64,000 bases of DNA from Chlamydiota bacterium (GTDB lineage: Bacteria; Chlamydiota; Chlamydiia; Chlamydiales; JACKPQ01), in the NCBI GenBank assembly GCA_021772435.1, contig JAJFLZ010000037.1:129260-193259 (forward strand). Reading direction: 5' to 3'. Each line of letters opens with the position of its first letter. Positions within the stretch are counted from its first letter, which is position 1. The notes beneath the pieces were generated by a model. The model saw only the letters and a program-made list of their open reading frames with translations. It was not told where the DNA came from and did not search any database. Position numbers and translations under genes: made by a program. Shown one piece after another: positions 1 to 55,689 of this stretch.

Positions 1-2133
1 ACTAAGTTAAGAGAAATTGAAATCTTAAAAAACGGACTGATAGAGCATTTTGTTAATAAGCCACTAAAACCATGCGATGTTCTTATTCTAGCGCCTAATA
101 TCGCAGAGTATGTTCCCTATATCCAAAAAGTTTTTGGGGATCAGTGTCCATTTAATTTTGTCATTCACGATGTACCGAAACTTTTCGATCGGGCTTTTTT
201 GAAAGCATTAGAAGGACTGATGCATCTTGTTAAGAGCCGAACCTCGCCGCAGGATGTTTTGGATTTTTTTGCAAACCCGTGCGTAAAAAAACAGTGTCAG
301 ATTTCAACAGAAGATCTTTTTTTACTTGAGAAATGGGCAAAAGACTGCGGTGTGCACTGGGGTTTAGATCATGAAGATCGAGATCAACTGCTGGCTTTAC
401 CTGAGTTTGAAGACCCTATGCTAGAAAAGTCTGATTTAGGAACATGGCGATACTGTTTTGATGGATTACTTGCAGGCTTAGCTGTCATTGCAAATGAGGA
501 CGAGCCATGCGATCTACATCCACTCGATTTAGTTGAAAATTCTGTTGCAGAAACGCTTGGTAAATGGATTTGCTTGATACAGAGTTTGCAGCAATCATTC
601 GAACCTATGACTCTCACTGATTGGAAAAAAAGATTTTCATCTTTTGCAATGCAATTTATCGACCCGAGCATCGATCCCGGAGGCTATAAACTCTTTGCTG
701 ACGCATTAGAAGGTTTATCATGTCAAAATAGCTATGTATTGCCTTTTGACTCATTTTGGCAGCGCTTAAAAAACAGCTTAGAAACAAAAACGGGAACTGT
801 GCACGGCAATGATTTAAATGCAGTGCCATTTTGCTCAATGAAAACTGGGCGGGCTTGTCCTGCATCGCTAGTTTGGTGTTTAGGACTGCATGATGGAGCT
901 TACCCTAGATTGCCAACTTCAAATCCGCTTGATGAGATGGGCTATAGTGGTGATCCATGCCCTAGCCATGCAGATGAGGACCGGCATTTGTTTTTGGAGC
1001 TTGTGTTATCCGCTCGCGATACCTTCTGCGTGAGCTACCTCTCAAACTCTGACGCTGATGGAAAACCTCAGGGACTATCGATTGTGGCACAAGAGCTTTT
1101 AAATTATGTGCATTTAGACCTGGCCATTTACCACCCTAACCAAGGGTTCAACCCCTGTTATTTTTCAGGTAATTCTGATTTTAACTCATATGATAAAAAC
1201 GCATTTTCCATTGCAGCAATGGATGAGCAAAAAACAGCGCATTTGATTCCTCAATTTTTTACTAAAGCAGAAAAATCTAGAAAAATAATCCCAAAAGATA
1301 CTCATTTGAGTGTTGAAGATATTGCAGCTTTTGCAAGGCATCCTCTTGCTTATTTTATAAAAAAACGGTTAGGTGTTTACCTGGAGTATGAAGAGGAAGA
1401 TGGAGAATTTCAACTTTCTAGTTTGCACCACTTTCTAGCTAAAAAAAGCCTGTTACACGGCGTGAAGGGCGAGGTGATATCAAGTCTTCAAAATTCTGGA
1501 ATGTTGCCACTTGGTCGATTTGGTGAACTTGCGGGAAAACGTCTTCAGATTCATGCTGAAAATTTCAAGCAAAAACTGGAAGAATTTAACGTTAAAAAAT
1601 CAGATCTATTTCAAATACAGCTACATAAAGCAGATGTAAAGCAGTTTTACATTGGCGAAAAAGAAGTGGGTTTACATGCTCTTGAATTAACGTTATCTGA
1701 TGGAACTGGTGTGTCTATTCATGGAAACATAACGGATGTATCACCAGAAGGTTTATGCGTTCAGAGTAGGGCAGACCTTTCCAACCAAGTTAAAATATGG
1801 CCCCTTATGCTCATCTTGGGTGTTTTGGATGTTTGCAAGCCCCAAGCATTGTTTTTGGAGGACGGTAAAAAACTCGAAATTGATCAAACAAAGGCCAAAG
1901 AGGCTTTGCAACGTTACATAGAATATTTCTTAAGAGCTCAAATAGATCCCTCGCCGTTTATTCCTGGATGGGCAAGCGCTTTTTTAACAAAGTGTCCGAA
2001 TGATTTGAAAACTTCCGATCTTGAAGATCCTTATTTTAAATGGGCCATTGGTGATGATGATAGAATCGATAAGGCGGCATTGTTTGTACGTTGGCAAAAA
2101 GATTTGCAATACGTATTTGAGGATTTAATCTGA
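1..2133 (+). CDS. recC: RecBCD (exonuclease V) gamma subunit RecC, C-terminal ~710 codons; the 5' end lies left of the window
   Basis: Frame 1 is open from nt 1; the ORF-track start at 199 is an internal TTG. Stop TGA 2131-2133 overlaps the recB ATG (TGATG). The call rests on length and on the recC-recB-recD operon context. No sharp motif is readable by eye. Confidence 0.75.
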   Translation, partial: TKLREIEILKNGLIEHFVNKPLKPCDVLILAPNIAEYVPYIQKVFGDQCPFNFVIHDVPKLFDRAFLKALEGLMHLVKSRTSPQDVLDFFANPCVKKQCQISTEDLFLLEKWAKDCGVHWGLDHEDRDQLLALPEFEDPMLEKSDLGTWRYCFDGLLAGLAVIANEDEPCDLHPLDLVENSVAETLGKWICLIQSLQQSFEPMTLTDWKKRFSSFAMQFIDPSIDPGGYKLFADALEGLSCQNSYVLPFDSFWQRLKNSLETKTGTVHGNDLNAVPFCSMKTGRACPASLVWCLGLHDGAYPRLPTSNPLDEMGYSGDPCPSHADEDRHLFLELVLSARDTFCVSYLSNSDADGKPQGLSIVAQELLNYVHLDLAIYHPNQGFNPCYFSGNSDFNSYDKNAFSIAAMDEQKTAHLIPQFFTKAEKSRKIIPKDTHLSVEDIAAFARHPLAYFIKKRLGVYLEYEEEDGEFQLSSLHHFLAKKSLLHGVKGEVISSLQNSGMLPLGRFGELAGKRLQIHAENFKQKLEEFNVKKSDLFQIQLHKADVKQFYIGEKEVGLHALELTLSDGTGVSIHGNITDVSPEGLCVQSRADLSNQVKIWPLMLILGVLDVCKPQALFLEDGKKLEIDQTKAKEALQRYIEYFLRAQIDPSPFIPGWASAFLTKCPNDLKTSDLEDPYFKWAIGDDDRIDKAALFVRWQKDLQYVFEDLI
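1634..1652. repeat. Palindromic element copy (ATGTAAAGCAGTTTTACAT), inside recC, read in frame as DVKQFYI
   Basis: 7-bp arms ATGTAAA/TTTACAT with a 5-nt loop. It is the reverse complement of the copy at 17855-17873. Confidence 0.9.
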
Positions 2134-5100
2134 TGGAAAATTACAACTGCTTAGATCAAAACCTAAATCTTTGGGGACATCATTTTCTAGAAGCATCCGC
2201 AGGTACTGGAAAAACCTTTACGATTGAGCATATTGTTCTGCGACTCCTACTTGAAAAAGACCCTATCGATATCGATCAAATCTTGATTGTCACGTTTACA
2301 AGAGCTGCTACAAGAGAGCTGAAACAACGCATTCAAAATCGACTAAGAGAAGGGCTTAGAGCATTAGAGCAGGGTGAAATTAAATATCCGTATTTAGATC
2401 TTTGCGAAAAAGACAAGGCGTATGCGATCGAGCGTTTAAATTTAGCACTTAGCTGCTTTGACAAAGCTCAGATTTATACCATTCATAGCTTTTGTCATCG
2501 CACTTTGCTTGAAGAGGGTTTTGAAGCGGGAGTTTCGCTTGATCTATCAAACCCAGATGATTTAGGGACCTTTGCATTTCGCGAGTCGCAAATAAAAGAT
2601 TTTTTGCGAACAGGAATAAAGCCTGAGTTGTTTGCCCCCAGCCAAATTGAAAGAGTACTCCAGGCATGTGGAGGTAAAATCCAGAGATTAATTGCACGAA
2701 TTTCTCAACTGGACGATGAAGCTCAGCCTATTGCTCTACCAGTACAAGAGACGCTTAAGCAATTTAATTTAGCTTTAAATATGCTGCCTGAAAAAGCAGA
2801 GTGTGTGTTTGACGAACTTTGCCTTATCACAGGTCAATTTAAAGGAGTTTGTGATCGCAGTGGAGCATTTATATCATCAATTGAGCTACAAATTAAGCTT
2901 TTAGCTGAGATCATCGAATCGCAGAAGATCACATTGGATCAAATGGATGTGCTTTTGGGATCTAGTCCTAACTTGATCTTGCAATTGAACCTGGACAATC
3001 GAAAAAAAAGAGATTTTGAAAAGGTTTTACCTTTGTACCATGCTTGGATTCTTGCAAATATTTATCCTTTAATTGACGAGGCAATCAATCCAGATCATAT
3101 TCTTAGACATATGGGTGTGCTTTGCAAAAAACGCCTTGAAGTTGCCAAAGAAGTACATGGAGTCATCTTTCCCGATGATCTATTGCAGCAGATGCACTGT
3201 GCTTTAGAAAACCCTTTAGTTGCAGAAAAAATCAGGCAAAAATACAAAGCAGCTATTGTCGATGAATTTCAAGATACAGACTCTATTCAATGGTCGATTT
3301 TTCAAAAGTTGTTCATGTTTCCCAGTAGTGAAATTCCAGCATTTTATCTGGTTGGAGATCCAAAACAGTCCATTTATGCCTTTCGAAAAGCGGATCTTTA
3401 CACCTATTTAAAAGCGCAAGAAAAACTGGGTTTACAAAGCAGAAAAATGCTCAATACGAATTATCGAAGCTCAAAAGAGCTCATCGATGGGCTCAATACT
3501 TTGTTTGCACATGAAAAAGCCGGCAGCTGGTTACAACTTCCCTCTAAAGAGGCTTGTATTCATTATCAGCCGGTTTTATCAAGCCAAGAAACTGAGCCGC
3601 TTGGTGACGATAAAAAAGCTGTGCATATTTTAAAAATCGATGATCCTAAGGCACGTAGCGTACCTTCAAAGGATCTCGAAGAGCGAATACTTTTTCCATA
3701 CATTGCATCTGAGATCAAAGCGTTGGGCTTGGGATTTTCATCTTTTGCCATTTTGATCAAAGACCGCTATCAATCGATGCGCCTCCAGAAATATTTTAAG
3801 CGCATTGGCATTCCTGCAATCACACAAAGTGGTATTTCCGTATGCGCATCTAAGGTTTATTTATTTTTGAATGCTCTTTTAGAAGCGGTCATTAGACCGA
3901 GTAACCTTGGAGCCATTAAAAAGCTTTTATCAGCTCCTATTGTCGCTTGGAATTATCTAGATCTTTTGCCGGAAAATCATGGTCAACGCATTGTTGACAT
4001 CTCTTCAGAGCTTCATAAGTTTAAAGAGATCTGGGAAACGCAAGGGTTTGCAGCGTTTATCAATGCAGCGCAAGCTTACTCATTTGGTCACGACATGAAT
4101 TTGATTCAGCTGCTTGCAGTTGAGAAAGAAAATTATGTCGATTTCACTCACCTGATCGAACTGCTACTGGAAGAAGAAGGTAAAAGACCTCATTCGATGC
4201 GTGATTTGCATCAGGTATTTAAACGTTTTAAACAGATCAATCCAGATCACCATCCTCATATGCGACAGCGCAAAGTCTTTGATGAGAGTGCTGTCACCAT
4301 CATGACAACGCATATGAGTAAAGGACTTGAATTTGATGTCGTATTTGCATTGGGAATGGGGTGTCGACATAGTGGGCTTGCAGATCTTGAACTCGAAGCA
4401 GAAAAACTAAGACTATTTTACGTTGCGCTAACAAGAGCCAAAAGACGTGTTTATTTGCCAGTCATTAGCACATCAGGAAAGCCATCTCTGCCGTTTTGTG
4501 CGTCTCCTGCTGAAAAGTTTTTTGAGGGTTTTGAGGATTTAGAAGAGTTAACCTCGTCTAGTATAAGCGTTGAGGAACTTAATGAGACAATTCAAAGTCC
4601 CAGCTTTACATGTATAGAGAAACCCCAACTGGCTCCTCCAAAAGCGCATGGACTTCATTTTGCGAGACGCTCAATTTCGTCTTATTCTGGGCTCGTTACA
4701 TCTGAATTTGATTTCAATGCTCCAAGACAATCGAAAGATTTTACAGAATTCAATTTACATACCCTGCCAGCAGGAGCTGACACAGGAGTGCTTTTGCATC
4801 ATCTTCTGGAAAAAACCATCGAGATGGGGCTATACCGCGATAGTGAAATCACACGCATTCAAAAATTCGTGCAAAACCAATTGAAGTGCTCTAGTCTACG
4901 ACAGTGGGATGTGGTCATAGCAAAAATTATTTTTGGGATCATGCAAACTCCCATCGACGGTTTTTCCCTAAAAGATGTGCCAGAAAACGCCATCACTCAA
5001 GAGATGGAATTCTTACTTCCGATGGATACTGATTTAATGATTAAAGGATTTGTCGATTTGATTTTTCAATATGAAAACAAAACCTATATTATCGATTGGA

Positions 5101-5336: not shown

Positions 5337-6795
5337 AGTTGATCAGGCATTTGCTGAAATGATCATGAGGCGCTATGACCTAAATGACAGCTGGCTACGA
5401 AGTTTTTTAGCTGAGATGATGGCAAAAACGCGTCATGGCCACATATGTATAGACATATCTCAAGAAACTATTGCGCGGTTACCTGATTGTTTACTTGCAA
5501 AAGGTGACCTAGCTGATCGTTTGCTCAAAGTAAGAGGACCTCATCTATATTTCCATCGCTATTGGCATCTAGAAACAAAGCTCCTCTTGCCAATAGCCAG
5601 AAGACTAAAGCAATGTACCAAGATGGAAAGCGCTGCAATTGAAGGCCTGAATCAAATGCAGTGTCATGCAGTTTCAAGCGCTCTTACTCACGCGCTCACT
5701 TTGATATCAGGTGGGCCTGGTACGGGAAAAACACACACGATTTCCCACATTGTCAAACAGTTTTCAGGTAAGCGGATAGCGCTTACAGCACCCACTGGAA
5801 AAGCTGTTAGCAAGTTAAGTGAAAGTATTGTAAACCCAGAATTTTTCTTTGGAACGCTTCATAAGCTCCTTGGAATTAAGCGTGCTAAAGATGTACTGAA
5901 AACGCCCTCTTTACTTCCATATGATGTTGTCATTGTCGATGAATGCTCCATGGTTGATATTGGTATGTGGGGAACGCTTTTCGAAGCTTGCTCTTCTGAG
6001 ACTAAATTGATTTTGGTTGGGGATGCAAACCAACTGCCTCCGGTTGAAGGGGGAAACATTTTTCAGCAATTATGCGCTTTTTTCAAAAAAACAAAACAGA
6101 CAGGCTATAGCGAACTCACAACCTGTATGCGAACAGATAAGAAAGATTTGCAAGCTATAGCAAGCCTAATACTCAAAGGCTCATTTGAAGACCTTCCACG
6201 CATAGATATTCCTCCCGTACGGGAGCTAGTTAATATTGTAAACCCAGTGTTTACTCGTAAACTAGACGACCACATATCAACTGAGCTGCTGCTTATGGAA
6301 GCAAAAAAGTTCCAGATTTTGAATGCACTTAGAAGAGGACAGCTAGGGTGTGATGCGCTAAATCGTGCACTATTTCAGATCATCAAAGGCAATATACAAA
6401 AGAATGATCGCTTAGCAATTCCCATTATTGTAACCCGTAATGCTCCTGATTTAGGTCTTAGTAATGGAGATATGGGTATTTGGATTCATGGACCAGAAGA
6501 ACAGGTCCTATTTAAGGATCAGATTATACCGAAGGCACTGGCGCCACCCTTTGAGCTTGCTTATATTTTATCTGTCCATAAGAGCCAGGGTAGTGAGTAT
6601 GAGGATGTTTATCTGCTGCTACCTCCGGGATCTGAGCATTTTGGTCGAAGTGTGTTATACACTGCTGTCACTCGGGCTCAAAGCCAATTGACAATTGCAG
6701 GAAGCTGTGAGACTGTGCAATTGTGCGCTCAAAATAATGTGATGCGCCTTGCTGGTTTATCTGAAAGACTAGGAGAAATACTATGCGTAGATTAA
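5308..6795 (+). CDS. recD: RecBCD alpha subunit RecD (SF1 helicase)
   Basis: Motifs ISGGPGTGKTHT (Walker A), DVVIVDECSMVD (Walker B), LILVGDANQLPPVEGG, SVHKSQGSEYEDV, LYTAVTRA. I prefer ATG 5308 (GAGGA 5 nt upstream) over the ORF-track TTG at 5290. Either start overlaps the recB 3' end. Confidence 0.9.
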   Translation: MVSTTIEISEVDQAFAEMIMRRYDLNDSWLRSFLAEMMAKTRHGHICIDISQETIARLPDCLLAKGDLADRLLKVRGPHLYFHRYWHLETKLLLPIARRLKQCTKMESAAIEGLNQMQCHAVSSALTHALTLISGGPGTGKTHTISHIVKQFSGKRIALTAPTGKAVSKLSESIVNPEFFFGTLHKLLGIKRAKDVLKTPSLLPYDVVIVDECSMVDIGMWGTLFEACSSETKLILVGDANQLPPVEGGNIFQQLCAFFKKTKQTGYSELTTCMRTDKKDLQAIASLILKGSFEDLPRIDIPPVRELVNIVNPVFTRKLDDHISTELLLMEAKKFQILNALRRGQLGCDALNRALFQIIKGNIQKNDRLAIPIIVTRNAPDLGLSNGDMGIWIHGPEEQVLFKDQIIPKALAPPFELAYILSVHKSQGSEYEDVYLLLPPGSEHFGRSVLYTAVTRAQSQLTIAGSCETVQLCAQNNVMRLAGLSERLGEILCVD

Positions 6796-8231: not shown

Positions 8232-9001
8232 TTTTTTGTATTAAGCAGCATTTGCTCTAGAATGTATTTTTTTCCCCAAAGGTGGACGTAATGGACGATA
8301 ACAGTAGATGGGTCTTGCGCATGGCGTAGCCTAGCGTTGTATCCCATCCGCATGCGATGAACTGGGAGACGGTGACGATGGATAATGCGAGATAGAGCGT
8401 CTTGATCTCCTAAATAATTTGTATGGTGTGAAAGAACCTCGTCTTTCCATAAGTCAATAATTTTACAGCCCTGTTTGTACCCAATCACGCCGCTGTTGTA
8501 GACGATTTCTCCAGGCAGCAAATAACCTTTAGATTCTAGCAAACTTTGATAATCAGGCATCTCTGGCACAATTGTAAAGCCAGTCGAATTGTCAATAAAA
8601 CTAAATATGTCATCTAACTTACCTTGGATCTGACAATCTAGATCAATCCAGATTGTCTTTTCAAAAGGTGTATGGGCTAAGCCAAAAGGCTTTAGCATCC
8701 AGATGGGATGAATGTTTTGAAGTTTTCCAGAGTAAAGCTCTTGCCAGGAGGTTTCTTTTTTAGGGCAAAGGGTTTTGTTAAATAGTTTTAGTAGAGAGGT
8801 CTTGTCAAAGTCAAGTACTGTACCGATCTGTTTGGCTTTTGTTAAGCCGTTTTTCGATAGTCCAAAGTCGCAGATAGCAATCGGGTAATCACAATATTTT
8901 TTGTAATGTGCATACCACCAGCCTAACATCCACTCTTGTGTTTTATCTGCACCAATGATGACTCCTTGAGAAGCGATAAGATGAGAATTCCACATAACCA
9001 T
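8228..9001 (-). CDS. Putative glycosyltransferase, GT8-like (nucleotide-diphospho-sugar transferase fold)
   Basis: 257 aa with IWIDLDCQI (DxD), NSGVIGY, GDQDALS and a late HYVH..GKK motif. This order matches GT8 enzymes. The stop codon overlaps the dacB stop on the opposite strand. Confidence 0.45.
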   Translation of the reverse strand: MVMWNSHLIASQGVIIGADKTQEWMLGWWYAHYKKYCDYPIAICDFGLSKNGLTKAKQIGTVLDFDKTSLLKLFNKTLCPKKETSWQELYSGKLQNIHPIWMLKPFGLAHTPFEKTIWIDLDCQIQGKLDDIFSFIDNSTGFTIVPEMPDYQSLLESKGYLLPGEIVYNSGVIGYKQGCKIIDLWKDEVLSHHTNYLGDQDALSRIIHRHRLPVHRMRMGYNARLRHAQDPSTVIVHYVHLWGKKYILEQMLLNTKN

Positions 9002-10029: not shown

Positions 10030-10929
10030 AAGTGCTGCTTTTAAATGTTTATCATGTAAAGCCACGATATTTTTAAAAAGAGTTATCCATATTTTTTTAG
10101 TTTTTTGTCTTTTTCCTTTTTTTTCTAAATGGGTTAAAAGGTCGGAAAAATCAGGATCACGCCATATACGAAACAAGAGATCTCCACTGAAAAAAACGGG
10201 CCAATTTTCAATTCTGTCAGTCAAAGATTTGGGGGACTTTTGAAACATATCTTTTTTAAAATAATAGTGTTGCGTTAGATGAATTGGGCATTTTTTGCCA
10301 ATGTAAAACCGCTTTACATCTGAGATGAGCTCGAGTTGGTCGTATATCCACCCTTTTCCCCTAGGGTCAATGTTTGTATAGTAGCTTGGGAATTTTCGCA
10401 GATGCCTTTCAGAATCGGATAATCTTCGCTTATTAAAATTTTTTTCATGCAAAATCCAAACCAATAAATACCCCGTTCTTGCATACGCTTTTTGTCTGGC
10501 TCTCACTTCAAATAGTGAGATCGGTGAGCATTGGACTTCAAAAATGAGTTTTTTTGATGGCACGACGACATCAGCAAAGCGGTTAACTTCAGGAAAGTAA
10601 TGTTCCATATGTGCATCGGGAAATATTTTTTTTAACCGGAGCTGGGTTTGTAGGTGGTAAGGACTTTTGCTGTGATTTGTGCAGTTTGTTTTTGGATTAG
10701 GGTGGAAAAAGTGCAGCTGATATTGCTTTCCTCCTCGCAAACGAACAGTTCCCTGGCACCCGGGACAGGTGTAGTCTTTCCCTTTTTGGGCATAAAGCGC
10801 AATCACGCTTTTTCCGTCTTCTAGCGCTATTAGTTGCATAGATAACCGATTGTAAAGAAATGTTTGTTTTTTTGGTGCTAAATATATATGATCCGGGGGA
10901 TTGACAAAAAGCGCCTCAATGCGAGACAA
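10006..10929 (-). CDS. coiA: CoiA-like competence protein family (zinc-ribbon plus PD-(D/E)XK-like nuclease core)
   Basis: YTCPGCQGTVRLRGGKQYQLHFFH, SPYHLQTQLRL, EHYFPEVNRFADVVV, LIFEVQCSPIS, GYLLVWIL. These follow the motif order I recall for streptococcal/Bacillus CoiA (CPxCG..V.LR.G....HF.H; ES.EH; E.YLPEI.Q.ADVLV; EVQCSPLS; GY.V.WLL). Confidence 0.7.
   Translation of the reverse strand: MSRIEALFVNPPDHIYLAPKKQTFLYNRLSMQLIALEDGKSVIALYAQKGKDYTCPGCQGTVRLRGGKQYQLHFFHPNPKTNCTNHSKSPYHLQTQLRLKKIFPDAHMEHYFPEVNRFADVVVPSKKLIFEVQCSPISLFEVRARQKAYARTGYLLVWILHEKNFNKRRLSDSERHLRKFPSYYTNIDPRGKGWIYDQLELISDVKRFYIGKKCPIHLTQHYYFKKDMFQKSPKSLTDRIENWPVFFSGDLLFRIWRDPDFSDLLTHLEKKGKRQKTKKIWITLFKNIVALHDKHLKAALLRNAKRS
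10301..10319. repeat. Palindromic element copy (ATGTAAAACCGCTTTACAT), inside the coiA-like gene, read in frame as DVKRFYI
   Basis: The 32 nt at 10292-10323 match the reverse complement of 1630-1661 at 29/32. Confidence 0.9.
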
Positions 10930-10968: not shown

Positions 10969-12630
10969 ATGAGCAAACCCAGTTTTGGAACCTTTGACCC
11001 TCAGCATCAACAAAAAATTGAAGAACTTGTTGCAATTGCTAAAGATCAAGGGTTTGTCACCTATGAAGAAATAAACGAAATTCTTCCCATGACTTTCGAC
11101 TCCCCTGAGCAGATTGACCACGTGTTGATCTACCTCAGTGGAATGGATATTCAAATCCTCAATCAAGCGGAAGTGGATAGACAAAAAGAGCGGAAGAAAG
11201 AAGCCAAAGAGATGGAAGGCTTACCGAAGCGCACTGAAGGATCATCGGATGATCCTGTACGCATGTATCTCAAAGAGATGGGATCGGTTCCTCTACTCAC
11301 GCGTGAAGAAGAAGTTGAAATTTCAAAGCGTATTGAAAAAGCGCAGCTTCAAATTGAAAGAATTATCATGCGTTTTCGCTACTCTGCTAGAGAAACCATT
11401 TCAATCTGTCACTACCTTGTTTCAGGAAAAGATCGCTTCGACAAGATCATTGCAGAAAAAGAAATCGAAGACAAAGCTGTCTTTTTAAAACTACTTCCAA
11501 GATTACGTGAACTGTTGCTCGAAGAAGATCAAATGCTAGAGTCACAACTTGTTCAATTGCGTAATAACAAGCTGAAAAAAGTTGATCGCGTTAAAATCAC
11601 TGAAGAAATCGAAAAGAGCCGTATTCGTACCCAAGCTTATCTTCGCCGCATGCACTTTCGCCATAATATTATTGACGACTTTGGTGAAGTCATCATGGCA
11701 GCGTATGAGCGATTTACCGCTCTAGAAAAAGAAATTCAAGAATTGGTGCCCAGAGCAGAGAAAAACCGCTTTGCAGCAGCTAAACTTAAGGCAGCACAGC
11801 GCCGGCTTTACAAGCGCGAGCTAGCTGCAGGCCGCACACTAGACGAGTTTAAAAAAGACGTGCGTATGTTGCAACGTTGGATGGATAAGAGCCAAGAAGC
11901 CAAGCGCGAAATGGTCGAATCCAACCTCCGTCTCGTTATCTCGATTGCGAAAAAATACACTAACCGTGGTTTGTCTTTCCTCGACCTGATTCAAGAAGGC
12001 AACATGGGCCTTATGAAAGCGGTAGAAAAGTTTGAATATCGCCGAGGTTACAAATTTTCAACTTATGCCACTTGGTGGATTCGCCAAGCAGTCACACGAG
12101 CGATTGCAGATCAAGCTCGCACGATTCGTATTCCAGTGCACATGATCGAAACGATCAATAAGGTGCTGCGGGGTGCAAAAAAGCTCATGATGGAGACAGG
12201 CCGTGAACCCACTCCAGAAGAGCTGGCTGATGAGCTTGGTTTAACTCCTGAGCGTGTTCGCGAGATTTACAAAATTGCTCAACATCCGATTTCCCTCCAG
12301 GCTGAAGTTGGCGATAATGGTGAAAGTACGTTTGGTGACTTTTTAGAAGATAAAAATACGGAATCACCATCAGAAGCAACTGGTTATGCGATTTTGAAGG
12401 ACAAAATGGGTGAGGTTCTCTCAACACTTACAGATCGAGAGAGAACAGTCCTCATCGAGCGCTTTGGCCTGCTCGATGGTAAACCTAAAACTCTGGAAGA
12501 GGTCGGCTTAAGATTCAACGTGACAAGAGAGCGCGTGCGTCAGATTGAGGCTAAAGCGCTACGTAAAATGCGCCATCCTACGCGAGCTAAACACTTAGAA
12601 GCTTTCATGGAAATGATCGAACACGAGTGA
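10969..12630 (+). CDS. rpoD: Primary RNA polymerase sigma factor (sigma-70/sigma-66)
   Basis: [41 protein letters not shown] (region 2). [30 protein letters not shown] (region 4.2). AGGAG lies upstream of the ATG. Confidence 0.95.
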
Positions 12631-12798: not shown

Positions 12799-13983
12799 AT
12801 GGTATTCGACCCTTTTGACCGTTACGATATCACTCCCCCTGACCCTATTTTTTTTATCAGTTCTCAAGCAGCAGCAGATCAAAGACCCGAAAAAGTTGAT
12901 CTAACCATCGGTATTTACAAAACAGCTGAGCTCAAATCGATGGTTTTTAAAAGCATCAGAGAAGCTGAAAAAAAACTGCTCGAGAATGAAACAAATAAAG
13001 ATTACTTATCGATTAGCGGTCATCAAGCCCTAATTGATGGATCGATTGATCTTGTTTTTGGTAAGGATCACTGTGAAAGAGCAATTTGTGGGATACAGGC
13101 TTTAGGTGGAACTGGAGCGCTATGTCTTGGAGCCAATTTACTTGCTGAAACCCTTAAGATGCCTGTCTATGTATCAAAGCCCACATGGGTCAATCATCAT
13201 AATGTTTTTTCTAGCGCAGGCTTTATGGTCAAAGATTATTTTTATTACGACCAGAAAACCCAGTCTCTTAATATTGATGCATTTTTTGAGGCCCTAAATA
13301 GAGCAGAAAAAGGTAGTGTTGTCGTTCTCCATGGATGTTGCCATAATCCAAGTGGTGCAGATCCCGATTTGGAGCAATGGAAAGAAATTTCTGATTTATG
13401 TAAAGCCAGGCAGCTAATTCCATTTTTTGACTTAGCTTATCAAGGGTTTGGTCAAGGATTAGAGCAAGATGTGAGAGCTATTCGACTCTTTGCAAAAGAT
13501 GGACATTCCATGCTTGTTGCCCAATCCTTTTCAAAAAACTTAGGGCTTTATGGAGAACGTGTTGGGACTTTACTTGTTTTAACATCTGAAAAAAGTGGTG
13601 TGATAAGTCATTTAAAAGCTATTGCAAGAGCTTCATATTCAAATCCTCCTCGTCATGGTGGATTGATAGCAGCTCACGTGTTATCAGATCCTCATTTGCG
13701 ATCTATCTGGGAAGATGAATTGAATTATATGAGACAAAGAGTTAATTCCACGCGTGAACACCTAGCAGATGCTTTAGCAAAGTCTTGTCCTAATCACGAT
13801 TTTAGTTATTTAAAAGAGCGCAATGGGATGTTCTGCTACCTGGACTTAACAAAAGATCATATTGAAAGTTTAAAAACTGAAAAAGCTATTTATTTGACTC
13901 AGTCGGGCCGCATTAATGTAACAGGGCTAAATGAACAAAATGTCGTCTACGTAGCTGACTCAATCGCGAGTGTTTTGGAATGA
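12799..13983 (+). CDS. aspC: Aspartate/aromatic-amino-acid aminotransferase (class I, AspC/TyrB type)
   Basis: HGCCHNPSGADP, SFSKNLGLYGERVG (PLP lysine motif), YSNPPRHG. Confidence 0.9.
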   Translation: MVFDPFDRYDITPPDPIFFISSQAAADQRPEKVDLTIGIYKTAELKSMVFKSIREAEKKLLENETNKDYLSISGHQALIDGSIDLVFGKDHCERAICGIQALGGTGALCLGANLLAETLKMPVYVSKPTWVNHHNVFSSAGFMVKDYFYYDQKTQSLNIDAFFEALNRAEKGSVVVLHGCCHNPSGADPDLEQWKEISDLCKARQLIPFFDLAYQGFGQGLEQDVRAIRLFAKDGHSMLVAQSFSKNLGLYGERVGTLLVLTSEKSGVISHLKAIARASYSNPPRHGGLIAAHVLSDPHLRSIWEDELNYMRQRVNSTREHLADALAKSCPNHDFSYLKERNGMFCYLDLTKDHIESLKTEKAIYLTQSGRINVTGLNEQNVVYVADSIASVLE

Positions 13984-17271: not shown

Positions 17272-18342
17272 TTCAGAATAGGTATCGAAATAGTTTGCTA
17301 TAAGTGTTGTCAGAGCATTTTTGATTGTTTCATCATCTGCTGGATCAAAGGTGTAATCGTAGAGATTTTGACGGGCTGTTTGGAAGGCACTTTGGTCCTC
17401 TTCTAAATGGTCTTCCATGATGGAATAGATCTCATGGACTGAATCCATGGGGACGGACAGGCCACAGCGCTGAAGAGGGTTTTCTCTTTCTGGGCCGATG
17501 AAGAACATAGGACGGTTGTAGGTTAAAAAGTCGTAGCCAATGGATGAGCGATCGCCCATGTAAACCCGGATGTTTTCCAAAATAGGGTAGATGAGGGGAA
17601 ATTCGGAAACGAAGTGGACTGATGGGTGATGTTCGTATCTAGCCAAGATCCGTTCCACTTCCATGATGTGTTGAATGCTTAGGTTGGGATGAATTTTAAC
17701 GATGAGGTTATACTCGTCTGGGAGCTCGTCGATGAGTGTTGGGCAGGCGTCGAAAAAGGTCGTAGGCTCGACCCCATCTGACCAAGTGGGTGCATAGAGG
17801 ATAAATTCTTTTTTTTCAGCAAATTGCGATGCGATTTCAGTCTCAAATAAGTTCATGTAAAACTGCTTTACATTACTATGGAGCCGGTGGCGGTAATTAC
17901 CAAGGCCAACTGTCCCCTGCAGATTGTCAAAAACATTGTGATCACGGAAAAAGTCCCGCATCTTCTGACCGTAGACCAATGCATACTTTTCATCCTTGAG
18001 ACTCTGGTTCGAAAGAGATTTTGTGCCCTTATCAGAGCTGCCGTGTGGACACCAGATCGAAAGAACGTGCTTGCCGTAGAGGTGTTTGACACTGAAAAGG
18101 AGTTTAGATAGGAGCATGGTTGGGAGACAGGAAAATACAACGTCGTAGTGCTCTGCAATATGCTTTGCAAGTTCTACTTCATCGACATGAAACACGATGA
18201 GCGTGGGATAGTATTTTTTGGCTATTTGAGACAAGGACTCTTCTGTGACAAGCAAAGGCATTTCCAAAAGAATGCACAAAGGAGCAATGTGATCGAGATG
18301 ATGGAGAGCCTGGCCGTAAATAAATCCAACAGGTGTTCTCAT
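17257..18342 (-). CDS. TagB/TagF-like CDP-alditol phosphotransferase family protein (paralog 1)
   Basis: 361 aa. LYAPTWSDG, KIHPNL and GDRSSIGYDFLTYNRPMFF match the order of Glyphos_transf motifs (YAPT(W/F)R, HP, D.SS...D(F/Y)..L.KP). CPHGSSDKG is shared with the neighbouring paralog. Confidence 0.55.
   Translation of the reverse strand: MRTPVGFIYGQALHHLDHIAPLCILLEMPLLVTEESLSQIAKKYYPTLIVFHVDEVELAKHIAEHYDVVFSCLPTMLLSKLLFSVKHLYGKHVLSIWCPHGSSDKGTKSLSNQSLKDEKYALVYGQKMRDFFRDHNVFDNLQGTVGLGNYRHRLHSNVKQFYMNLFETEIASQFAEKKEFILYAPTWSDGVEPTTFFDACPTLIDELPDEYNLIVKIHPNLSIQHIMEVERILARYEHHPSVHFVSEFPLIYPILENIRVYMGDRSSIGYDFLTYNRPMFFIGPERENPLQRCGLSVPMDSVHEIYSIMEDHLEEDQSAFQTARQNLYDYTFDPADDETIKNALTTLIANYFDTYSELDDL
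17855..17873. repeat. Palindromic element copy (ATGTAAAACTGCTTTACAT), inside TagF-like paralog 1, read as NVKQFYM
   Basis: An exact 19-mer shared (as reverse complement) with the recC copy. Confidence 0.9.
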
Positions 18343-19376
18343 CCAACCTCCAACGGGCTTGTTGTTTGAATAGCAGCTAGAATATCAGAGCGGATATCTT
18401 TTGGTGTACGTTTTTCTCCAAATGCATCCTGGTACAGCTCGTATTGAGCTTGCTTGTATGCATCTGTTTGGATAGTCGTGATGGTATCAAATGGATTTTC
18501 GCCAATTGGTATGCCGCAAACATCCAAGGGTGTTTTGCGGTCTGCTTTATGGAGGAAAAACATGGGTTTGTTAAATGCTAGCACATCGTATCCAATCGAT
18601 GAATAGTCTCCTAAATAAGCGCAGCAGCGATTCAGAATGGGATAAATAGCGGGATAATTGAGCAAGGCTTGAATATTAGGATATTTTTTGCAGTGCTCTA
18701 AGATGTAGTAGGTGTGAGCTGGTTGGTATTTTTCAAGCAACGGATGCAGTTTAATAAGCAGGTTAAAATGTTTTGGCAGAGCTTGAATCATCGACTGGCA
18801 ATGATCTAAAAAAGAGGTGCTATTTTCCGAATCTTTCCAGGTTGGCGCATACAAAATAGTCGGTTGGTTTTTTTCAAACTGAGAAAAAATCTCTCGCTCT
18901 GCTAAGTCGTCAAAATGTCTTTGAAATTGCTTGTAAAATCTGTAGCGATAATTACCGGTGATGACAGTCTTTTGTATCTTTTCGAGCACATTGTGCTGGT
19001 CCAAGTAGCGCAGCATTTGCGGTCCGTAGACGAGATGAATATCGTGTAGCAAATGGGGGTCGATGTGTTTAAATCCATATGTCTTATCAGAGTTGCCATG
19101 CGGACAATAGATAAACCTCATTTGACCACGAAGCAGATGAGCCAGTTCCGTTGTCCATCTTTTTCCTGAAATAAAAAGTGTGTCAAAGTTGGTCTTTAAA
19201 AAATCATGGCCAAAGCTGAGGTGATCGCAATAGATTGTTTCAATTTGTGGATAATGGTTTAATGATAGCTCATACAACGCCGGATCAGTAATGATCAGGG
19301 GTATGTCCATCATATGGCAAAGAGGTGCTAGATGGTCAGGGTGTGTAAAGCTATTGGTTACAGCAGCAGCTCGCAT
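18339..19376 (-). CDS. TagB/TagF-like CDP-alditol phosphotransferase family protein (paralog 2)
   Basis: 345 aa. LYAPTWKDSENS, KLHPLL, GDYSSIGYDVLAFNKPMFF, CPHGNSDK. A 4-nt overlap with paralog 1 indicates co-translation. Confidence 0.55.
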   Translation of the reverse strand: MRAAAVTNSFTHPDHLAPLCHMMDIPLIITDPALYELSLNHYPQIETIYCDHLSFGHDFLKTNFDTLFISGKRWTTELAHLLRGQMRFIYCPHGNSDKTYGFKHIDPHLLHDIHLVYGPQMLRYLDQHNVLEKIQKTVITGNYRYRFYKQFQRHFDDLAEREIFSQFEKNQPTILYAPTWKDSENSTSFLDHCQSMIQALPKHFNLLIKLHPLLEKYQPAHTYYILEHCKKYPNIQALLNYPAIYPILNRCCAYLGDYSSIGYDVLAFNKPMFFLHKADRKTPLDVCGIPIGENPFDTITTIQTDAYKQAQYELYQDAFGEKRTPKDIRSDILAAIQTTSPLEVG

Positions 19377-32301: not shown

Positions 32302-32303
32302 CC

Positions 32304-38516: not shown

Positions 38517-41500
38517 TTACAGCAGTTTGCTGCCGCCGTAGCGAAGGAGGAGAGCGTTGGTTTTGGAAAGGGGATCGGAGTCTTTGGTTTGTAGGAATTC
38601 GAGGAAGTAGGTGGCAGCTTGGAATCTTGCGCCTTGGGCTCGGAAGGATTGGGAGCTGGTGGTGTTTTGGTCGAAGGTGATTTTTTTGGAAATGTTGACA
38701 AAGGATGAACCGAATCTGCCTTGGATCATGAGGTTGATATCGGAGAGTGTATCCATTTCGCCGTAGATCACAAGGGGTTTGCTCGCATAGAAGGTTGGCA
38801 GGCGGGGCGATTCTGTAAAGAGTTTGCAGTTAGCATTTGGGTCGGTTGGCATGACAATGGCATGGAGGTCGCGGGCAATAGGCTGTTGGTGCTTCTTGAC
38901 AAAACCAGCAAATTTGCGTGGAAAAGGCGCTAGGGTGGGACAGTGCATGACTTCACCGCGCTGGAGGGTGGCTAGCATGTGGATGAAGGAGATGTGGTTG
39001 TCGCCTCCGATGCAGGTAGGATAGATGTTAAAGGTGTTTTTATTGGAGGTAATGAGCGTGTTCACATCGGTTAGGTGTTTGTTTAGATCGAGTAGGCCGT
39101 CACCGTCTGTGAAGAGGTAGATGGTGTGTAGCCCGGGGACGTTTTCTAGTGTTTTGCAAAGGGTATTTAGCTGAGCGTAGACGTTAGATGTTTTGTACGG
39201 GTGAAAGAATTTTTGTTTTTCTAAGTAGTCTCTGGCTAGTGTTTTGGTGGTTTGTGTGACAGAAAGGTTAGTTGGGCTCATCGCGTGGAGCTGGTCGTCG
39301 ATGGTAAAGATGTTAAAACGATCGTCTTTATGGATGTAGGGAAGAGCTCTTGTGACGGCGCTTTTGTAGGCGCTTGCTTTGCCTTTGTTGATGGATGTGG
39401 AGTTGTCGATGATGAAGTAGACGTTTTGCTCTAAACGCTCAAAATGGGTATTGGGAGTTGGCTGCATGGTGATGGAGAACAGATATTTCCCGTCGGTTGT
39501 TTTGGGCAGCCACGATACATGTGTTGTAAATTCGTGATTGAGCGTGGCGGTTTCTAAGTCGAATAGGCTGGGAATGCGAGCTAAGTTTGTGGCTGTTACG
39601 CGGTGCTTGCGGTTGAGTTTATCTGAGCGTCTTTGATGTCTGCGCTCGGCAAAGTTCGCTTGCGATCGGATGTCTTCAACAAGAGATGGATCTTCCCATA
39701 GATAGGGGGTGCCGCCCTGAATGGGTTCAAGAGAAATGGGTTGAATTGAAGTGGTGTCTACGTTGAGTGTATGTTTTTCGGGAGTTGGAAAGTGGCCGTA
39801 TTTGCGGATGTATTGATCGGGTGTGAGGCGCTTTTTTGCTAAGGCTTGTTGGTGGTTGGCGTCAGCAACGAGTGTAGCTTGGAGCTGGGCTGGTATGCTT
39901 TTTGTGCTTGCAGGATGCAGCAGCGGATCCGTCTCTACAATGAGGTGGTTAAAGAGGTTCAGACGATCTAGTCTGTACTTGCGCATTTCAGTTGGTAAAG
40001 TTGTGGGCGGGTTTAGACAAATGTAGGTTGAAGCAGGGATAGTATTGATGGCATAGGTTTCTGTCGATGGCAGAAAAGCGAGTTGTTTAGGTTGTTCGAT
40101 AACGAGGGTAGTTTCTGCAGGTACATCAATCGCATTTGCTAACTGAGATTGAAAGCGATGCATTTGAGATGGTGGCGTGGGTTTTGCCGTCATATACAGG
40201 TAAATAGCTCTTGGATCTGGAGCGCTGCTAACGAAAAAGCTTGGGATTTGTGTTGGAGCGCTGCCGAGTATAAGCGTTTTTAGATGTATGTCCTGGTTGA
40301 TCCATTCTAGGTTATCAGGTTCGATAGAACGGGGCCTCGAGTGGCTAAGCGCAAACAGCGGGCGCGGACTTTTGACAAGCTGAGCAAGAGGCATGTCAGT
40401 CATTTCGATGAGGGCTTGCAGGTTAACTGTAGAGCGCTGGTATTTGGGATAGTCTTGTGGATTAAGGGATGTGGTGTTTTGTTTAAAGTGGTCTTTTTTG
40501 ATTGTAAAGCCAGCATCTTTGAGCGTTGGAAGAGTGACAGTTAGACCAACCATGCCGAGTGCAAGGGGTTTGATTTTATCTGACTGATTAAAGGCAAATT
40601 CAGCAGCTTGCGTGCTTGCTGTGAGGCTTGTTTCTAACAAATGGTCTTGAGGTGGTGTTTGCAAAAGCCTGTCAATGTGGGGAATCGGAGCATAAGCTGG
40701 ATGTTTTTTGAAGGAGTAGGCTTTGGGACGGTGGTGTGGGAGTTCTCGTAAAAGTGTGTTAGCATCGTCACAGCCCAGCGAATCTGCAACTGTAATGGGT
40801 GATGGAGTCATGGTCGAATGCGCAACGGAAAGGAAGTGATCGTACGATGGTATTGATATGGTGTGAATTTTTTCTGGTTGCATATGAGGGGAGGTGAAGG
40901 TAAATGGCGTATCTTCAATTGGAAGAGTAGATGGATGTTGCAAAACGGCAACAGAAAGCTGTTTTTTGTGAAATTTTGCTATGGGGGCGTTATGGAGGCG
41001 GGATGGAAAGCTAAGCTTTTCAAAGGGCACAAAACATGTGCTGGATGTGATCGGTAATGGTGATATGAAGGCTGTGATTAAAACGTCTTTGAACGGATGC
41101 TCTGATAAGGTGAGGTATGTTGATTGGTTGCTTGGATCTGGCGATAAAAAATCAAGAGTGTTTTCAACCCATGGATAGTCGGAATCGTTATTTGCCTGCA
41201 GGTGAATGGAAGAGAAGCTGAACCGGTGGTGAGCAGCTGGCTTATGGTAGGCAGGACTGGAAAATGTGAATGGCTCGTTTGGAGCTAGGTTAAAGCTTGA
41301 TGAGTTAGAAACGCTCGGATGCGTCACGGTATAGGGTGTGATTTGTTGCTGGATTAAGTGGGACGGCGTTTTGCTTTTTTCTAAAAATGCGATGAGCGGA
41401 AATTGCATCGGATCGGCATCGGGTACACATAAAGGTGAAACTGATGGTGTCCATGTTTTTTTAAATGAGTTTTGTTTGGCTAGATGTATTTTTTTGCAGT

Positions 41501-44816: not shown

Positions 44817-45866
44817 CTATAACGACAGACTGGAAGAATTTGCAAGTAACTTCCGCAAAGAACTTTTATAAAATTTAAGCAAATCGTTTGCTTTGGGATA
44901 AGACATGCGTTTTAGATGCTGATAAATCTCCAACGCTTTCGCATTAAAACCTTCTTGAAAATAGAGCACGCCTAGGCGATAGCTACTATCTAAATCTTCG
45001 GGACATAGACGTAATATTTTTTCATACGCAGCGATTTCTTCTTGCGGCATTTTTAAGTGGTGATAGCAAGCCGCTAGTTGTGAATGCACCCATGCATCGT
45101 TAGGTGCGTAGGTGTCTAAAATGGTAAATTCTTCTACAGCACTTTTTGAGGCTTTGTCAAATTTGTCTTTTAGCTCCCCTGCAAAGGTGCTTTTTTCGCT
45201 GTAATGAAGCTCCCCTTTTCTGAGGCGTTGCGATGGTTCGAAATAGAGATGGGACAAAGAGACAAAAGCATTGGCTAAATGTGTGTGCAGTTCGATATCA
45301 GTGGGCTTATCCGGAACAAGTTGAATGTAATGATCAATAGCGCTGAGCAAGAGCACTTCTTTCATTCTCAATACATCGCGCCAGTGCAAAAAACAACTGA
45401 GCTTGGGAGTCAAAGGTGTTTTGAGTAGCGGATAAAAATGATGCTCTTGATGTTGCAGTAGAGCTACGAGGCGCTCCGCACAGCGAGCTTGCGAAAAATG
45501 GTGTTCAGAGACTCCGAGGTGCCTAGATGTTTTGCCGCAAGCGTCCAAATACGATTTTTTTAGTCGCCAAAATTGTTCGGTTTTTTTCGTTTGAAAAGTT
45601 GCAACCAGGACAATGTAGATAAATAGCGTTAAAATAAAGGCTGCCAAAGGAAATGCCAACATAAATGAATGGGACCAAAAAGAGAAAAACAGACTGAATA
45701 AAGCGCATTCGATTCCAATGACAAGAGCAAAAAAACAATGGAACATTACATGGGCTTTACATAAACGCATAAAGCGCCCTAACGCGCGCTCCATGTATTC
45801 ATCGACATGGCGCTGTCGCTCATTGACTTTGAGCTTATCTAAGGACGGGGTATCAGTGGTCTGCAT
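44817..45866 (-). CDS. Membrane protein with a bilobed hydrophobic domain and C-terminal TPR repeats (Inc-protein-like topology)
   Basis: 349 aa. Two adjacent long hydrophobic segments (VMFHCFFALVIGIECALFSLFFSFW and FMLAFPLAAFILTLFIYIVLVATF) lie ~40 residues from the N-terminus. The C-terminus has TPR-like repeats (AWVHSQLAACYHHLKMPQEEIAAYEKILRLCPED...). Confidence 0.6.
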   Translation of the reverse strand: MQTTDTPSLDKLKVNERQRHVDEYMERALGRFMRLCKAHVMFHCFFALVIGIECALFSLFFSFWSHSFMLAFPLAAFILTLFIYIVLVATFQTKKTEQFWRLKKSYLDACGKTSRHLGVSEHHFSQARCAERLVALLQHQEHHFYPLLKTPLTPKLSCFLHWRDVLRMKEVLLLSAIDHYIQLVPDKPTDIELHTHLANAFVSLSHLYFEPSQRLRKGELHYSEKSTFAGELKDKFDKASKSAVEEFTILDTYAPNDAWVHSQLAACYHHLKMPQEEIAAYEKILRLCPEDLDSSYRLGVLYFQEGFNAKALEIYQHLKRMSYPKANDLLKFYKSSLRKLLANSSSLSL

Positions 45867-51001: not shown

Positions 51002-51028
51002 GCAGATGTAAAACCGCTTTACATCTGC
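51002..51028. repeat. Longest palindromic element copy (GCAGATGTAAA-ACCGC-TTTACATCTGC) in the tolB-pal intergenic gap
   Basis: 11-bp perfect arms. It starts 3 nt downstream of the tolB stop codon on the minus strand. Confidence 0.92.
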
Positions 51029-54955: not shown

Positions 54956-55689
54956 CAGCAGATAGTGTCTATCCGCAAATCGATCAAATCCTAGAGCGCG
55001 CCAAAGCAGCCGGCATCGATCGCATCGCCAATATTTGCACTGACCCCAAAACGTTAGAAAGAGGCCTTACCCTATCTGAGCAAAACCCCTGGGTTTACAA
55101 TGTCGGTGCTACAACACCACATGATGTCGACAAAGAAGGAGCTGAGGCTTTTCCCATCTTTGAAAAAGCAGCTCGCGCTGGCAAACTTGTGGCAATTGGC
55201 GAAACTGGCCTGGACTACCACTACGAGCATTCAAAAAAGGAGTCGCAGCAAGATTATCTCAAACGGTATTTTGCCTTAGCGCAAGAGCTTTCTCTTGGAG
55301 TTGTGATCCATTGTCGTGATGCCTTTGATGATTTTTTCGCCTTAGCCGATAAGCATTACGCTCAAAAAAACCTGGTTTTACATTGCTTTACAGGAACGAT
55401 GGATGAGGCAAAAGAGGTCATCAAGCGCGGCTGGTATTTATCTCTTAGTGGCATTGTGACCTTCAAGCGATCCGAAGTGTTACGGGAAGTTGCCAAAATC
55501 ACACCTCTTGAGCAGCTGCTGATTGAAACCGACACACCTTACCTCGCTCCTGTTCCTTATCGCGGCAAGCAAAATGAACCCGCTTACGTGGTAGATACCG
55601 CCAGATGTATCGCTGCAGAAAAAAACATCGACCTAGAAACACTTGCGACAACCACATACCAAAACGCCTGCCGTTTTTTTCAGATCTGA
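54928..55689 (+). CDS. tatD: TatD-family metal-dependent hydrolase/DNase (YcfH-like)
   Basis: FFDSHAHL, IGETGLDYHY, VIHCRDAFDD, LHCFTG, LIETDTPYL. Confidence 0.92.
   Translation: MFFDSHAHLTADSVYPQIDQILERAKAAGIDRIANICTDPKTLERGLTLSEQNPWVYNVGATTPHDVDKEGAEAFPIFEKAARAGKLVAIGETGLDYHYEHSKKESQQDYLKRYFALAQELSLGVVIHCRDAFDDFFALADKHYAQKNLVLHCFTGTMDEAKEVIKRGWYLSLSGIVTFKRSEVLREVAKITPLEQLLIETDTPYLAPVPYRGKQNEPAYVVDTARCIAAEKNIDLETLATTTYQNACRFFQI

Follow-up and report, generated by a model that had tools for sequence, protein, structure and literature searches.

The DNA uptake sequences (DUS) of the Neisseriaceae (GCCGTCTGAA) and the uptake signal sequences (USS) of the Pasteurellaceae (AAGTGCGGT / ACAAGCGGT) are words of 9–12 nt, each the most over-represented oligomer. 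They lie on both strands, mostly inside genes and in whatever frames tolerate them, and single sites turn over. Inverted doubles stand at the 3' ends of genes, competence-type genes are present, and the words are clade-specific with lineage variants; the USS is in addition followed by a weak T-tract. We describe here a word that shares these properties in a 64,000-nt stretch of the genome of a Chlamydiota bacterium (contig JAJFLZ010000037.1, positions 129,260 to 193,259; this whole stretch is hereafter the window). The word exists as an isolated half-site and as a 19-bp palindrome made of two such units, and its lineage variants are here TGTAAACCCAG and a CAG extension. An initial annotation of the window had met the palindrome as a 32-nt match between recC and a coiA-like gene, and had suggested that this match could come from a mini-element inserted in frame or copied by gene conversion. 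We tentatively read the match as two copies of a clade-specific DNA recognition word, not as an inserted element, with a putative DUS-like role that our analysis makes possible rather than probable.

The window segment 1630–1661 is gcagATGTAAAGCAGTTTTACATtggcgaaaa, and direct comparison confirmed that its reverse complement is identical to 10292–10323 at 29 of 32 positions. The first segment lies in ORF (open reading frame) 199–2133, which encodes the C-terminal part of RecC, and the second in ORF 10006–10839(−), which encodes a CoiA nuclease domain (PF06054). The core of the match is a 19-bp palindrome, ATGTAAAGC-N-G(C/T)TTTACAT. When searched in the window as ATGTAAARCRGTTTTACAT with up to three mismatches, it gave six 19-nt copies (starting at 1634, 10301, 17855, 23975, 42815 and 51006) where 0.14 are expected, and none of 100 shuffles gave six. 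Four copies are intragenic. That of recC (1634..1652, +; ATGTAAAGCAGTTTTACAT) reads DVKQFYI and has an orthologous site in RecC of L199, L200 and L201, the three relatives introduced below; that of the coiA-like gene (10301..10319, −; ATGTAAAGCGGTTTTACAT) reads DVKRFYI. The third copy reported initially is indeed present, with the same core, at 17855..17873 (−) in a Glyphos_transf (TagF-like) gene (17257–18342, −; PF04464), and reads NVKQFYM. Three full copies come in addition to these. One is a perfect palindrome, ATGTAAAGCSGCTTTACAT (42815..42833, −), in a gene for a tetratricopeptide repeat (TPR) protein (41828–44614, −), where the other open frame is used and gives CKAALH. The two others are intergenic, immediately 3' of stop codons, and belong to longer palindromes: the site at 23975..23993 (−), obtained by the core search and extended to AGATGTAAAGCTGTTTTACATCT, begins right after the stop of gene 23994–26240(−), 67 nt before folB (23524–23907), and the site at 51006..51024 (−), extended to the 27 nt of GCAGATGTAAAGCGGTTTTACATCTGC, lies between tolB (51031–52341, −) and pal (50205–50879, −). 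Outside the core, 11 of the 13 flanking bases of the RecC/CoiA-like match are identical as well. This flank identity corresponds partly to a lineage-specific extension, cAG-ATGTAAAGC, present in four or five of the six window copies, and partly to TGGCnAAAA (window 1650–1661 versus 10292–10300), which encodes IG[EK]K.

The half-site is a word of 10–11 nt, (a)TGTAAA(G/C)CC(A/G)G, and in the 19-bp palindrome ATGTAAAGC-N-GCTTTACAT two such units, inverted, share one central base. Besides the six full copies the window holds 23 isolated half-sites, i.e. 29 sites in total or about one per 2.2 kb. ATGTAAAGC is its commonest 9-mer (16 copies on both strands versus 0.97 expected from Markov models), CTGGGTTTACA is observed six times versus 0.03 expected, and all the top-ranked over-represented k-mers at k = 8–11 are variants of the half-site word. 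The window and three syntenic relatives found via RecC (L199, which is JACKPP01, L200 and L201) together make 124 kb and contain 48 isolated half-sites. Their consensus is followed by a weak T-tract 5–8 nt downstream. At position 11 half-sites have G where palindromes have C, thus the isolated half-sites are not decayed palindromes. The strict form TGTAAAGCC falls in coding sequence in 27 of 27 cases, with every stop-free frame and both orientations represented. When orthologous columns are compared, almost every half-site is found in a single one of the four genomes, as a word maintained for density would be, while full sites are kept in four of four. Single words thus turn over, the density is held at roughly one per 2–4 kb, and the full palindromes are conserved in position. 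We are dealing with a clade-specific DNA word with a palindromic double form, which is the strongest oligonucleotide bias of the region and is common to a phage family described below.

The peptide shared by RecC and the CoiA-like protein had been ascribed initially to a DNA-level feature and not to protein homology, and codon alignments bear this out. In those of RecC (four genomes) and CoiA (six sequences) the site is GTA-AAR-CNG-YTT-TAC-AT in every case; Val is always GTA and Tyr always TAC, whereas the synonymous positions of the flanking codons differ freely. Of the Val codons in the window 16% are GTA; the shares of AAG among Lys, CTT among Leu and TAC among Tyr codons are 28%, 19% and 49%. 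Third-codon-position identity between the window and its three relatives, over six genes, is down to 38–44%, and still both full sites are kept in all four genomes. The residue that depends on the free central base varies between Q, R and P, and the first residue can be D, N, H or Y, i.e. any NAT codon. Wherever the peptide patterns occur in the window, which is four times, the motif encodes them, and no ortholog was seen that lacks the palindrome and keeps the peptide. The kept synonymous codons and the variable central residue rule out a conservation of the peptide at the protein level: the constraint acts on DNA, and the shared peptide is a by-product.

In frame 0 the motif reads ATG TAA, i.e. 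a stop, on both strands, so that two frames are open. The first, xAT GTA AAG CNG YTT TAC ATx, encodes [DNHY]VK[QRPL][LF]Y[IM] and the second, TGT AAA GCN GCT TTA CAT, encodes CKAALH. The translated copies are KADVKQFYIGE in RecC, ISDVKRFYIGK in the CoiA-like protein and HSNVKQFYMNL in the glycerophosphotransferase (TagF-like). These three proteins do share one frame, as had been pointed out, but this is weak evidence because the stop in frame 0 leaves only two frames (chance about one in four), and the TPR copy uses the other. Over 126 sites, the first open frame is used 44 times and the second 33 times, the 49 remaining sites being outside long ORFs. Short identical peptides in unrelated proteins, such as DVK[QR]FYIG and CKAALH, can be shadows of a DNA word and not protein motifs or insertions.

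The Rickettsia palindromic elements (RPEs) share with the motif that palindromic DNA is read in frame in unrelated proteins of an intracellular bacterium, the peptide being a by-product. RPEs are, however, mobile insertions of 100–150 bp that lengthen the host protein, and their copies have in common a conserved body of ~100–150 bp; the motif has 19 bp, changes the length of none of three testable protein families and has no conserved body beyond the palindrome. For CoiA, an alignment of 26 chlamydial homologs and one streptococcal sequence is free of gaps at the site. The 11 closest homologs (48–69% identity) read [DN]VKR[FL]YI[GV], and in more distant ones the segment diverges but keeps its length (e.g. 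xxxRR[LF]FKG). The TagF-like ortholog of L096 (50% identity) keeps the site with no indel, and the TPR orthologs of L049, L093 and L007 (60–80% amino acid identity) keep it with no gap. Across 119 sites, and likewise in the six window copies, conservation ends at ~21 bp. The initial proposal of an in-frame insertion in the manner of the RPEs does not agree with these orthologs of unchanged length and with this short conservation. In RecC, the four closest homologs (33–54% identity) all keep [DN]VK[QRP][FL]Y[IM]. The site stands there at the C-terminal end of a segment of ~21 amino acids, NVKKSDLFQIQLHKADVKQFY (window 1580–1650, residues ~835–862 of the 1021-residue protein), which is larger than the motif. 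This segment is present in the four chlamydial RecCs of the clade and is a gap in RecCs of ~25% identity, where the alignment is unreliable; the C-terminal part of RecC aligns too weakly with Escherichia coli RecC (1W36) to place it.

In an AlphaFold model of CoiA (mean predicted local distance difference test, pLDDT, of 91) the peptide (residues 174–180) forms the turn and second strand of a well-ordered beta-hairpin (165–173, 176–185), and the central motif codon encodes R177, a near-invariant residue. In the terminase of the phage family the ancestral peptide is Y[DS]VK[QN][IV]YI(D), and 7 of 120 homologs are motif-compatible. Since R177 is near-invariant and the ancestral terminase peptide is nearly compatible, the copies were fitted onto pre-existing compatible peptides. 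They arise by point substitution where the local sequence is already close to the word. Gene conversion, the other route suggested initially, is not needed to explain the data, but may have had a part in the flank: CoiA has IGKK as its ancestral state, RecC has IGEK in this lineage alone (other RecCs have MSAN, MDNI or MGDQ), and IG[EK]K may be a short conversion tract from CoiA to RecC, between inverted copies 8.7 kb apart.

A mobile mini-element, similar to RPEs or to miniature inverted-repeat transposable elements (MITEs) and inserted in frame or copied by gene conversion, is in our opinion an extremely improbable source of the match. It would account for the high nucleotide identity between unrelated genes and for the lineage-unique flank of RecC that matches the ancestral IGKK of CoiA, and in other chlamydial metagenome-assembled genomes (MAGs) the palindrome is part of a composite element of ~95 bp with unrelated flanks. 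The unchanged length of the CoiA, TagF-like and TPR orthologs and the end of conservation at ~21 bp speak against it, as do the recC and coiA sites, which four genomes share as ancient orthologous sites; the 64-kb window does not contain the composite element. In the MAGs (L033:7112-7263, L059:7630-7770, L070:2379-2530, L081:1121-1272, L102:2493-2630 and L116:1-140) this element consists of the site, 5–20 nt, a hairpin GGGGCCCCCGAAAACGCnTCGTTTTTGGGG and a variant site TTGTATTGCSGCTTTACAT, the palindrome being its left end. Its flanks are unrelated between loci, which gives it a MITE-like look, and in L033 a 32-bp direct duplication flanks the inner part.

An exact-pattern scan for the 19-mer, with one genome per species and 185,579 species, gave at least 116 stretches; the matches listed are a lower bound even within one contig, the RecC site of JACKPP01 (~713.9 kb) not being among them. 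Among the matches listed, those with a name are nearly all MAGs of Chlamydiota (Parachlamydiales, Simkaniaceae, Rhabdochlamydiaceae, Anoxychlamydiales, some labelled Verrucomicrobia). The perfect palindrome with C or G at its centre makes up most of the matches listed, a single MAG has sites on up to six contigs, and the GC content of the loci goes from 0.28 to 0.59. On long contigs the listed positions hinted at a clustering of sites in one chromosomal region, a hint that such a lower bound cannot carry, and within single MAGs the sites are scattered over many contigs. Not all chlamydiae have the motif: among 80 metagenome loci found via coiA (399 kb), it is present in the two closest relatives only, at the orthologous coiA position. 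Inside ORFs lie 72 of 132 chlamydial full sites. The 50 classifiable non-coding ones are in tandem (29), convergent (10) or divergent (11) gaps, so that tandem and convergent ones together account for 39 of 50. In a tandem gap the site mostly follows the upstream stop by 0–25 nt, or the TAA of the motif is itself the stop codon, and the site is much nearer to that stop than to the next start. This 3'-end location agrees with a word that frame 0 tolerates only where a gene ends.

The same pattern is found in at least 120 stretches of IMG/VR (L202-L321) versus ~10 estimated by chance. One related family accounts for 54 of the viral loci: podophages with genomes of 35–43 kb that encode a P22-like portal, a large terminase and a major head protein. 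The terminase has 1858 relatives at E<1e-20. These genomes carry one to three full sites, mostly in tiny intergenic gaps; about a quarter of the phage loci hold a second site, and the half-site is still 5-fold over-represented once full sites are masked. ORFs make up 89% of the phage loci, yet 30 of 127 classifiable sites are inside ORFs (four more sites are at locus edges). Those outside are in tandem (74), convergent (19) and divergent (4) gaps, and a site typically fills the gap from the stop codon to the next ribosome-binding site. Neither nucleotide similarity of the phage loci to the chlamydial loci nor a close known phage for the family was found. Because the word is otherwise nearly confined to Chlamydiota, the phages may be chlamydial, and perhaps the first tailed phages of Chlamydiota.

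The family (L202-L321, L322-L325) also encodes ERF/YqaJ recombinases and a small outer-membrane beta-barrel protein. At L322:20500-20518 (= L323:13189-13207) two convergent phage genes both end in the palindrome, each using one ATG-TAA as Met-stop. Paired phage sites 25–45 nt apart are found at L252:9720-9800, L232:7169-7212, L267:6709-6752 and L235:1156-1216, those of L252 within a 45-bp tandem repeat that also holds the half-site cttgtaaagccagcc.

The DUS-like role that we favour builds on the following. Point substitutions create copies where a sequence nearly matches the word, and within genes only the two stop-free frames tolerate them; a copy in frame 0 survives only at the end of a gene, with its TAA serving as stop codon. 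A force on the DNA sequence itself keeps these copies. In the role proposed, the word would be read as double-stranded DNA by a sequence-specific protein, probably with one subunit on each half-site and two on the palindrome. It would be a tag of "self", the tagged DNA being preferentially taken up and recombined by the chlamydial competence machinery, and molecular drive would accumulate and maintain it, as for DUS and USS. The likeness to DUS comes from a word maintained for its density, present in all tolerated frames and on both strands, with doubles at gene ends, lineage variants and competence-type genes nearby. Together with the coiA-like gene the window holds a secretin (28418–30727) and an ATPase of the type II secretion/type IV pilus type (30724–32301), within 27130–34766. 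We take ORF 32304–33488 to be the platform protein and the small ORFs 33499–34766 to be pseudopilins; the secretin, the ATPase, the downstream ORFs and the coiA-like gene could be parts of a DNA-uptake apparatus. Nine of the 29 window sites are in recBCD, coiA and mutY, which represent 13% of the window, a weak point that was noticed post hoc. In Chlamydia trachomatis an uptake of DNA that depends on ComEC has been documented (PMC6686042); no uptake sequence is named in a review of gene transfer in chlamydiae (PMC8936141).

Several points nevertheless weigh against this role. The bearers differ from those of DUS and USS in being Chlamydiota and obligate intracellular, and the role is here a prediction from sequence. 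The density (about one per 2–4 kb) is below the value of about one per kb of those systems, and genome-wide density and evenness are extrapolated from 64 kb plus ~60 kb of relatives; the over-representation itself was observed in about 124 kb of four related genomes and in biased 8-kb loci. Inverted half-sites always overlap by exactly one base to form a true 19-bp palindrome, which has the look of a dimer site, unlike the loosely spaced pairs of DUS. The full palindromes are held at orthologous positions through saturated synonymous divergence, as DUS and USS are not, and this fits a site-specific function better than pure drive. Phages carry the word abundantly, with an excess of half-sites, and a drive by uptake is not obvious on phage DNA unless the phages are temperate. 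Finally the half-site excess concerns the clade of the window and a few other motif-bearing MAGs, not all. The string AAGCGGT, common to the Apl-type USS and the motif, is probably a coincidence.

The main rival, owing to the fixed geometry, the deep positional conservation and the phage copies, is a position-specific site for a homodimeric DNA-binding protein, either a global regulator or a nucleoid factor in the style of Noc, SlmA, MatP or KorB, with phages exploiting the same host factor; we consider it possible but somewhat unlikely. Like the motif, parS of ParB, the binding sites of Noc (NBS) and SlmA (SBS), matS of MatP and OB of KorB are perfect palindromes of 13–19 bp, some of them odd-centred, often intragenic, conserved across species and present in tens to hundreds of copies per genome. 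The perfect 9-N1-9 arrangement points to such a protein, and so do the conservation over MAGs of very different locus GC (0.28–0.59), the full sites kept at orthologous positions in four of four genomes, the absence of an RNA-strand bias, the sites that phages keep in scarce intergenic space, and a degenerate copy at a parA-like/UPF0137 junction in L199 and L200. The central AGC-S-GCT moreover resembles the KorB operator TTTAGCSGCTAAA. But the known sites come with no surplus of isolated half-sites and are as a rule restricted to one chromosomal domain, whereas the motif is spread over many contigs with no single parS-like cluster. The isolated half-sites have a consensus of their own (CC[AG]G plus T-tract) and are not decayed palindromes; their strong enrichment in genes and their turnover between lineages are not predicted by a dimer site. 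Non-coding sites hug 3' ends and not promoters, the phages having 19 convergent versus 4 divergent ones. A promoter operator was rejected for this reason, with 11 of 50 chlamydial non-coding sites divergent and the tandem ones close to the upstream stop, and canonical parS was also discarded, being at chance level in the window while motif sites occur on up to six contigs of one MAG. A word with no function of its own, arising as a by-product of sequence-biased repair or methylation as proposed for HIP1 (GCGATCGC) of cyanobacteria, seems to us distinctly improbable. HIP1 resembles the motif as a function-unassigned palindromic word, over-represented in coding and non-coding DNA, kept at orthologous positions above the neutral expectation and with a centre that resembles a methylation site, here GCNGC, which is a known methyltransferase/restriction motif. 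Such a process would affect host and phage DNA alike, and would leave a distribution limited by tolerance (open frames, 3' ends, intergenic gaps) and half-sites that turn over. However, HIP1 has 8 bp versus 19 bp, and the motif is much rarer per kb and has an asymmetric class of half-sites; a specificity of 19 bp is far beyond any known context of very-short-patch repair, and full sites fixed through saturated divergence need a sustained constraint. No methyltransferase was identified, no search aimed at methyltransferases having been made.

At the RNA level, the motif could be a hairpin acting as intercistronic terminator, processing site or stabiliser of mRNA, an explanation that we hold for very unlikely. 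Non-coding copies do stand right after stop codons, and the tolB–pal copy (51006) folds at −15.7 kcal/mol (z = −5.1), but it is the sole strong folder: the core alone reaches −4.6 to −9 kcal/mol, often no better than shuffles. All five asymmetric window copies have the G.U-compatible strand as sense, but this vanished in the larger data, where single-mismatch variants show no overall bias (22 versus 27 in viral copies, 16 versus 9 in chlamydial ones, which include non-independent orthologs), and a hairpin with sense-strand G.U was rejected. Most chlamydial copies and all the isolated half-sites are intragenic, in both orientations, and no U-tract follows the site; the intrinsic terminator was discarded for this lack of a U-tract and for the weakness of most stems. 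An Rfam scan of the window gave a single tRNA at 12673–12745 (−) and no match at the motif sites. The families of repetitive extragenic palindromes and their associated transposases (REP/RAYT), which are extragenic only, do not fit either, with 72 of 132 chlamydial full sites and all 27 strict half-sites inside ORFs. A Chi-like signal for the chlamydial RecBCD, with the palindrome protecting from both directions and phages thereby escaping degradation, is very unlikely indeed. Chi is like the motif an over-represented word of core genes, of similar density, in a genome with RecBCD. The window does encode RecBCD, a density of about one per 2–4 kb in genes and in all frames is Chi-like, and carriage by phages would make sense. 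Chi differs by its replication-strand polarity, for which the motif shows no significant sign (48 versus 35 on the G-rich, leading strand, p = 0.19), and a polarity of the type of Chi or of the FtsK-orienting polar sequences (KOPS) was rejected on this count. Known Chi sites have 5–8 nt; the chlamydial word is longer and much more over-represented, and its palindromic form, with an exact overlap, and its deep positional conservation are not properties of Chi.

Over-represented recognition words are a known kind of feature (DUS/USS, HIP1, Chi), and this word has no earlier description in the literature searched, where nothing relevant was found on this sequence, on chlamydial uptake sequences or palindromic repeats, or on tailed chlamydial phages. 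The whole proposal, that a clade of environmental Chlamydiota has an uptake or self-recognition signal (an 11-nt word and its 19-bp double), the first outside Proteobacteria and in obligate intracellular bacteria, and that the same word links it to podophages of ~40 kb with a P22-type portal as the first tailed phages of Chlamydiota, is doubtful when taken in all its parts. Should the word prove to be a recognition signal, it would open a way into the gene exchange and chromosome biology of environmental chlamydiae, for which culture depends on hosts and genetic tools are few. As an uptake signal it could make transformation more efficient and would account for barriers to recombination between lineages; as a protein-binding site it would bring to light a new global factor that binds DNA. 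The word may also serve as a sequence tag by which hosts are assigned to an abundant, uncultured family of phages.

The isolated half-sites of the window are distributed as follows. In the recBCD region they are TGTAAACC (catgTAAACCCac) in recC (1669..1676, −), TTGTAAACCCAG (3429..3436, −) and ATGTAAAGCTGG (4603..4610, −, common to L199 at the same alignment column) in recB, and TTGTAAACCCAG twice in recD (5829..5836 and 6237..6244, both +). Further on, TTGTAAAGCCAG is antisense in ORF 8228–9001 (8573..8580, +), ATGTAAAGCCAC antisense in coiA (10055..10062, +) and TTGTAAAGCCGG antisense in rpoD (11805..11812, −), while ATGTAAAGCCAG is sense in an aminotransferase gene (13399..13406, +) and antisense in folKP (22820..22827, +). 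Between these two copies lie ATGTAAACCCGG in the TagF-like gene (17559..17566, +), the half-site-like word GTGTAAAGCTAT, a weaker match (19344..19351, +), and GTGTAAAGCCGT, antisense in mutY (20915..20922, −). TTGTAAAGCCAG is found again, antisense in ORF 38517–41816 (40503..40510, +), and ATGTAAAGCTGG in the TPR gene (42025..42032, +), where L049 has one at the matching place. ORF 44817–45866 holds ATGTAAAGCCCA in sense (45754..45761, −), and ORF 47754–48974 holds ATGTAAAGCCGG (48293..48300, +) and ATGTAAAGCCGA (48696..48703, +), both antisense. The last ones are TTGTAAACCCAG in tolB (51240..51247, +) and at 55092..55099 (−), CTGTAAAGCAATGTAAAACCAGG, made of two overlapping words (55385..55392, −), ATGTAAAGCCGG antisense in ORF 57724–59616 (58386..58393, −), and ATGTAAACCCAG in ORF 60438–63998 (61183..61190, −).

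A second word, (T)TGTAAACCCAG, occurs at 3429, 5829, 6237, 51240, 55092 and 61183, i.e. six times versus 0.03 expected. It is present once in the 23-kb JACKPP01 locus (L199), together with two TGTAAACCCGG variants, and in neither L200 nor L201; it looks like a lineage-specific variant of the half-site. The GC skew is positive across the window (1–64000) and the cumulative skew rises monotonically, hence the window is within one replichore. In the relatives, the region that corresponds to the DNA upstream of the window start contains the degenerate copy of the palindrome mentioned above (two mismatches; L199:1329-1347 and L200:2232-2250), kept in these two genomes exactly where a ParA-like gene meets a UPF0137 (pGP6-D family) gene. 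It overlaps the stop of the first gene and lies just before the ribosome-binding site of the second.

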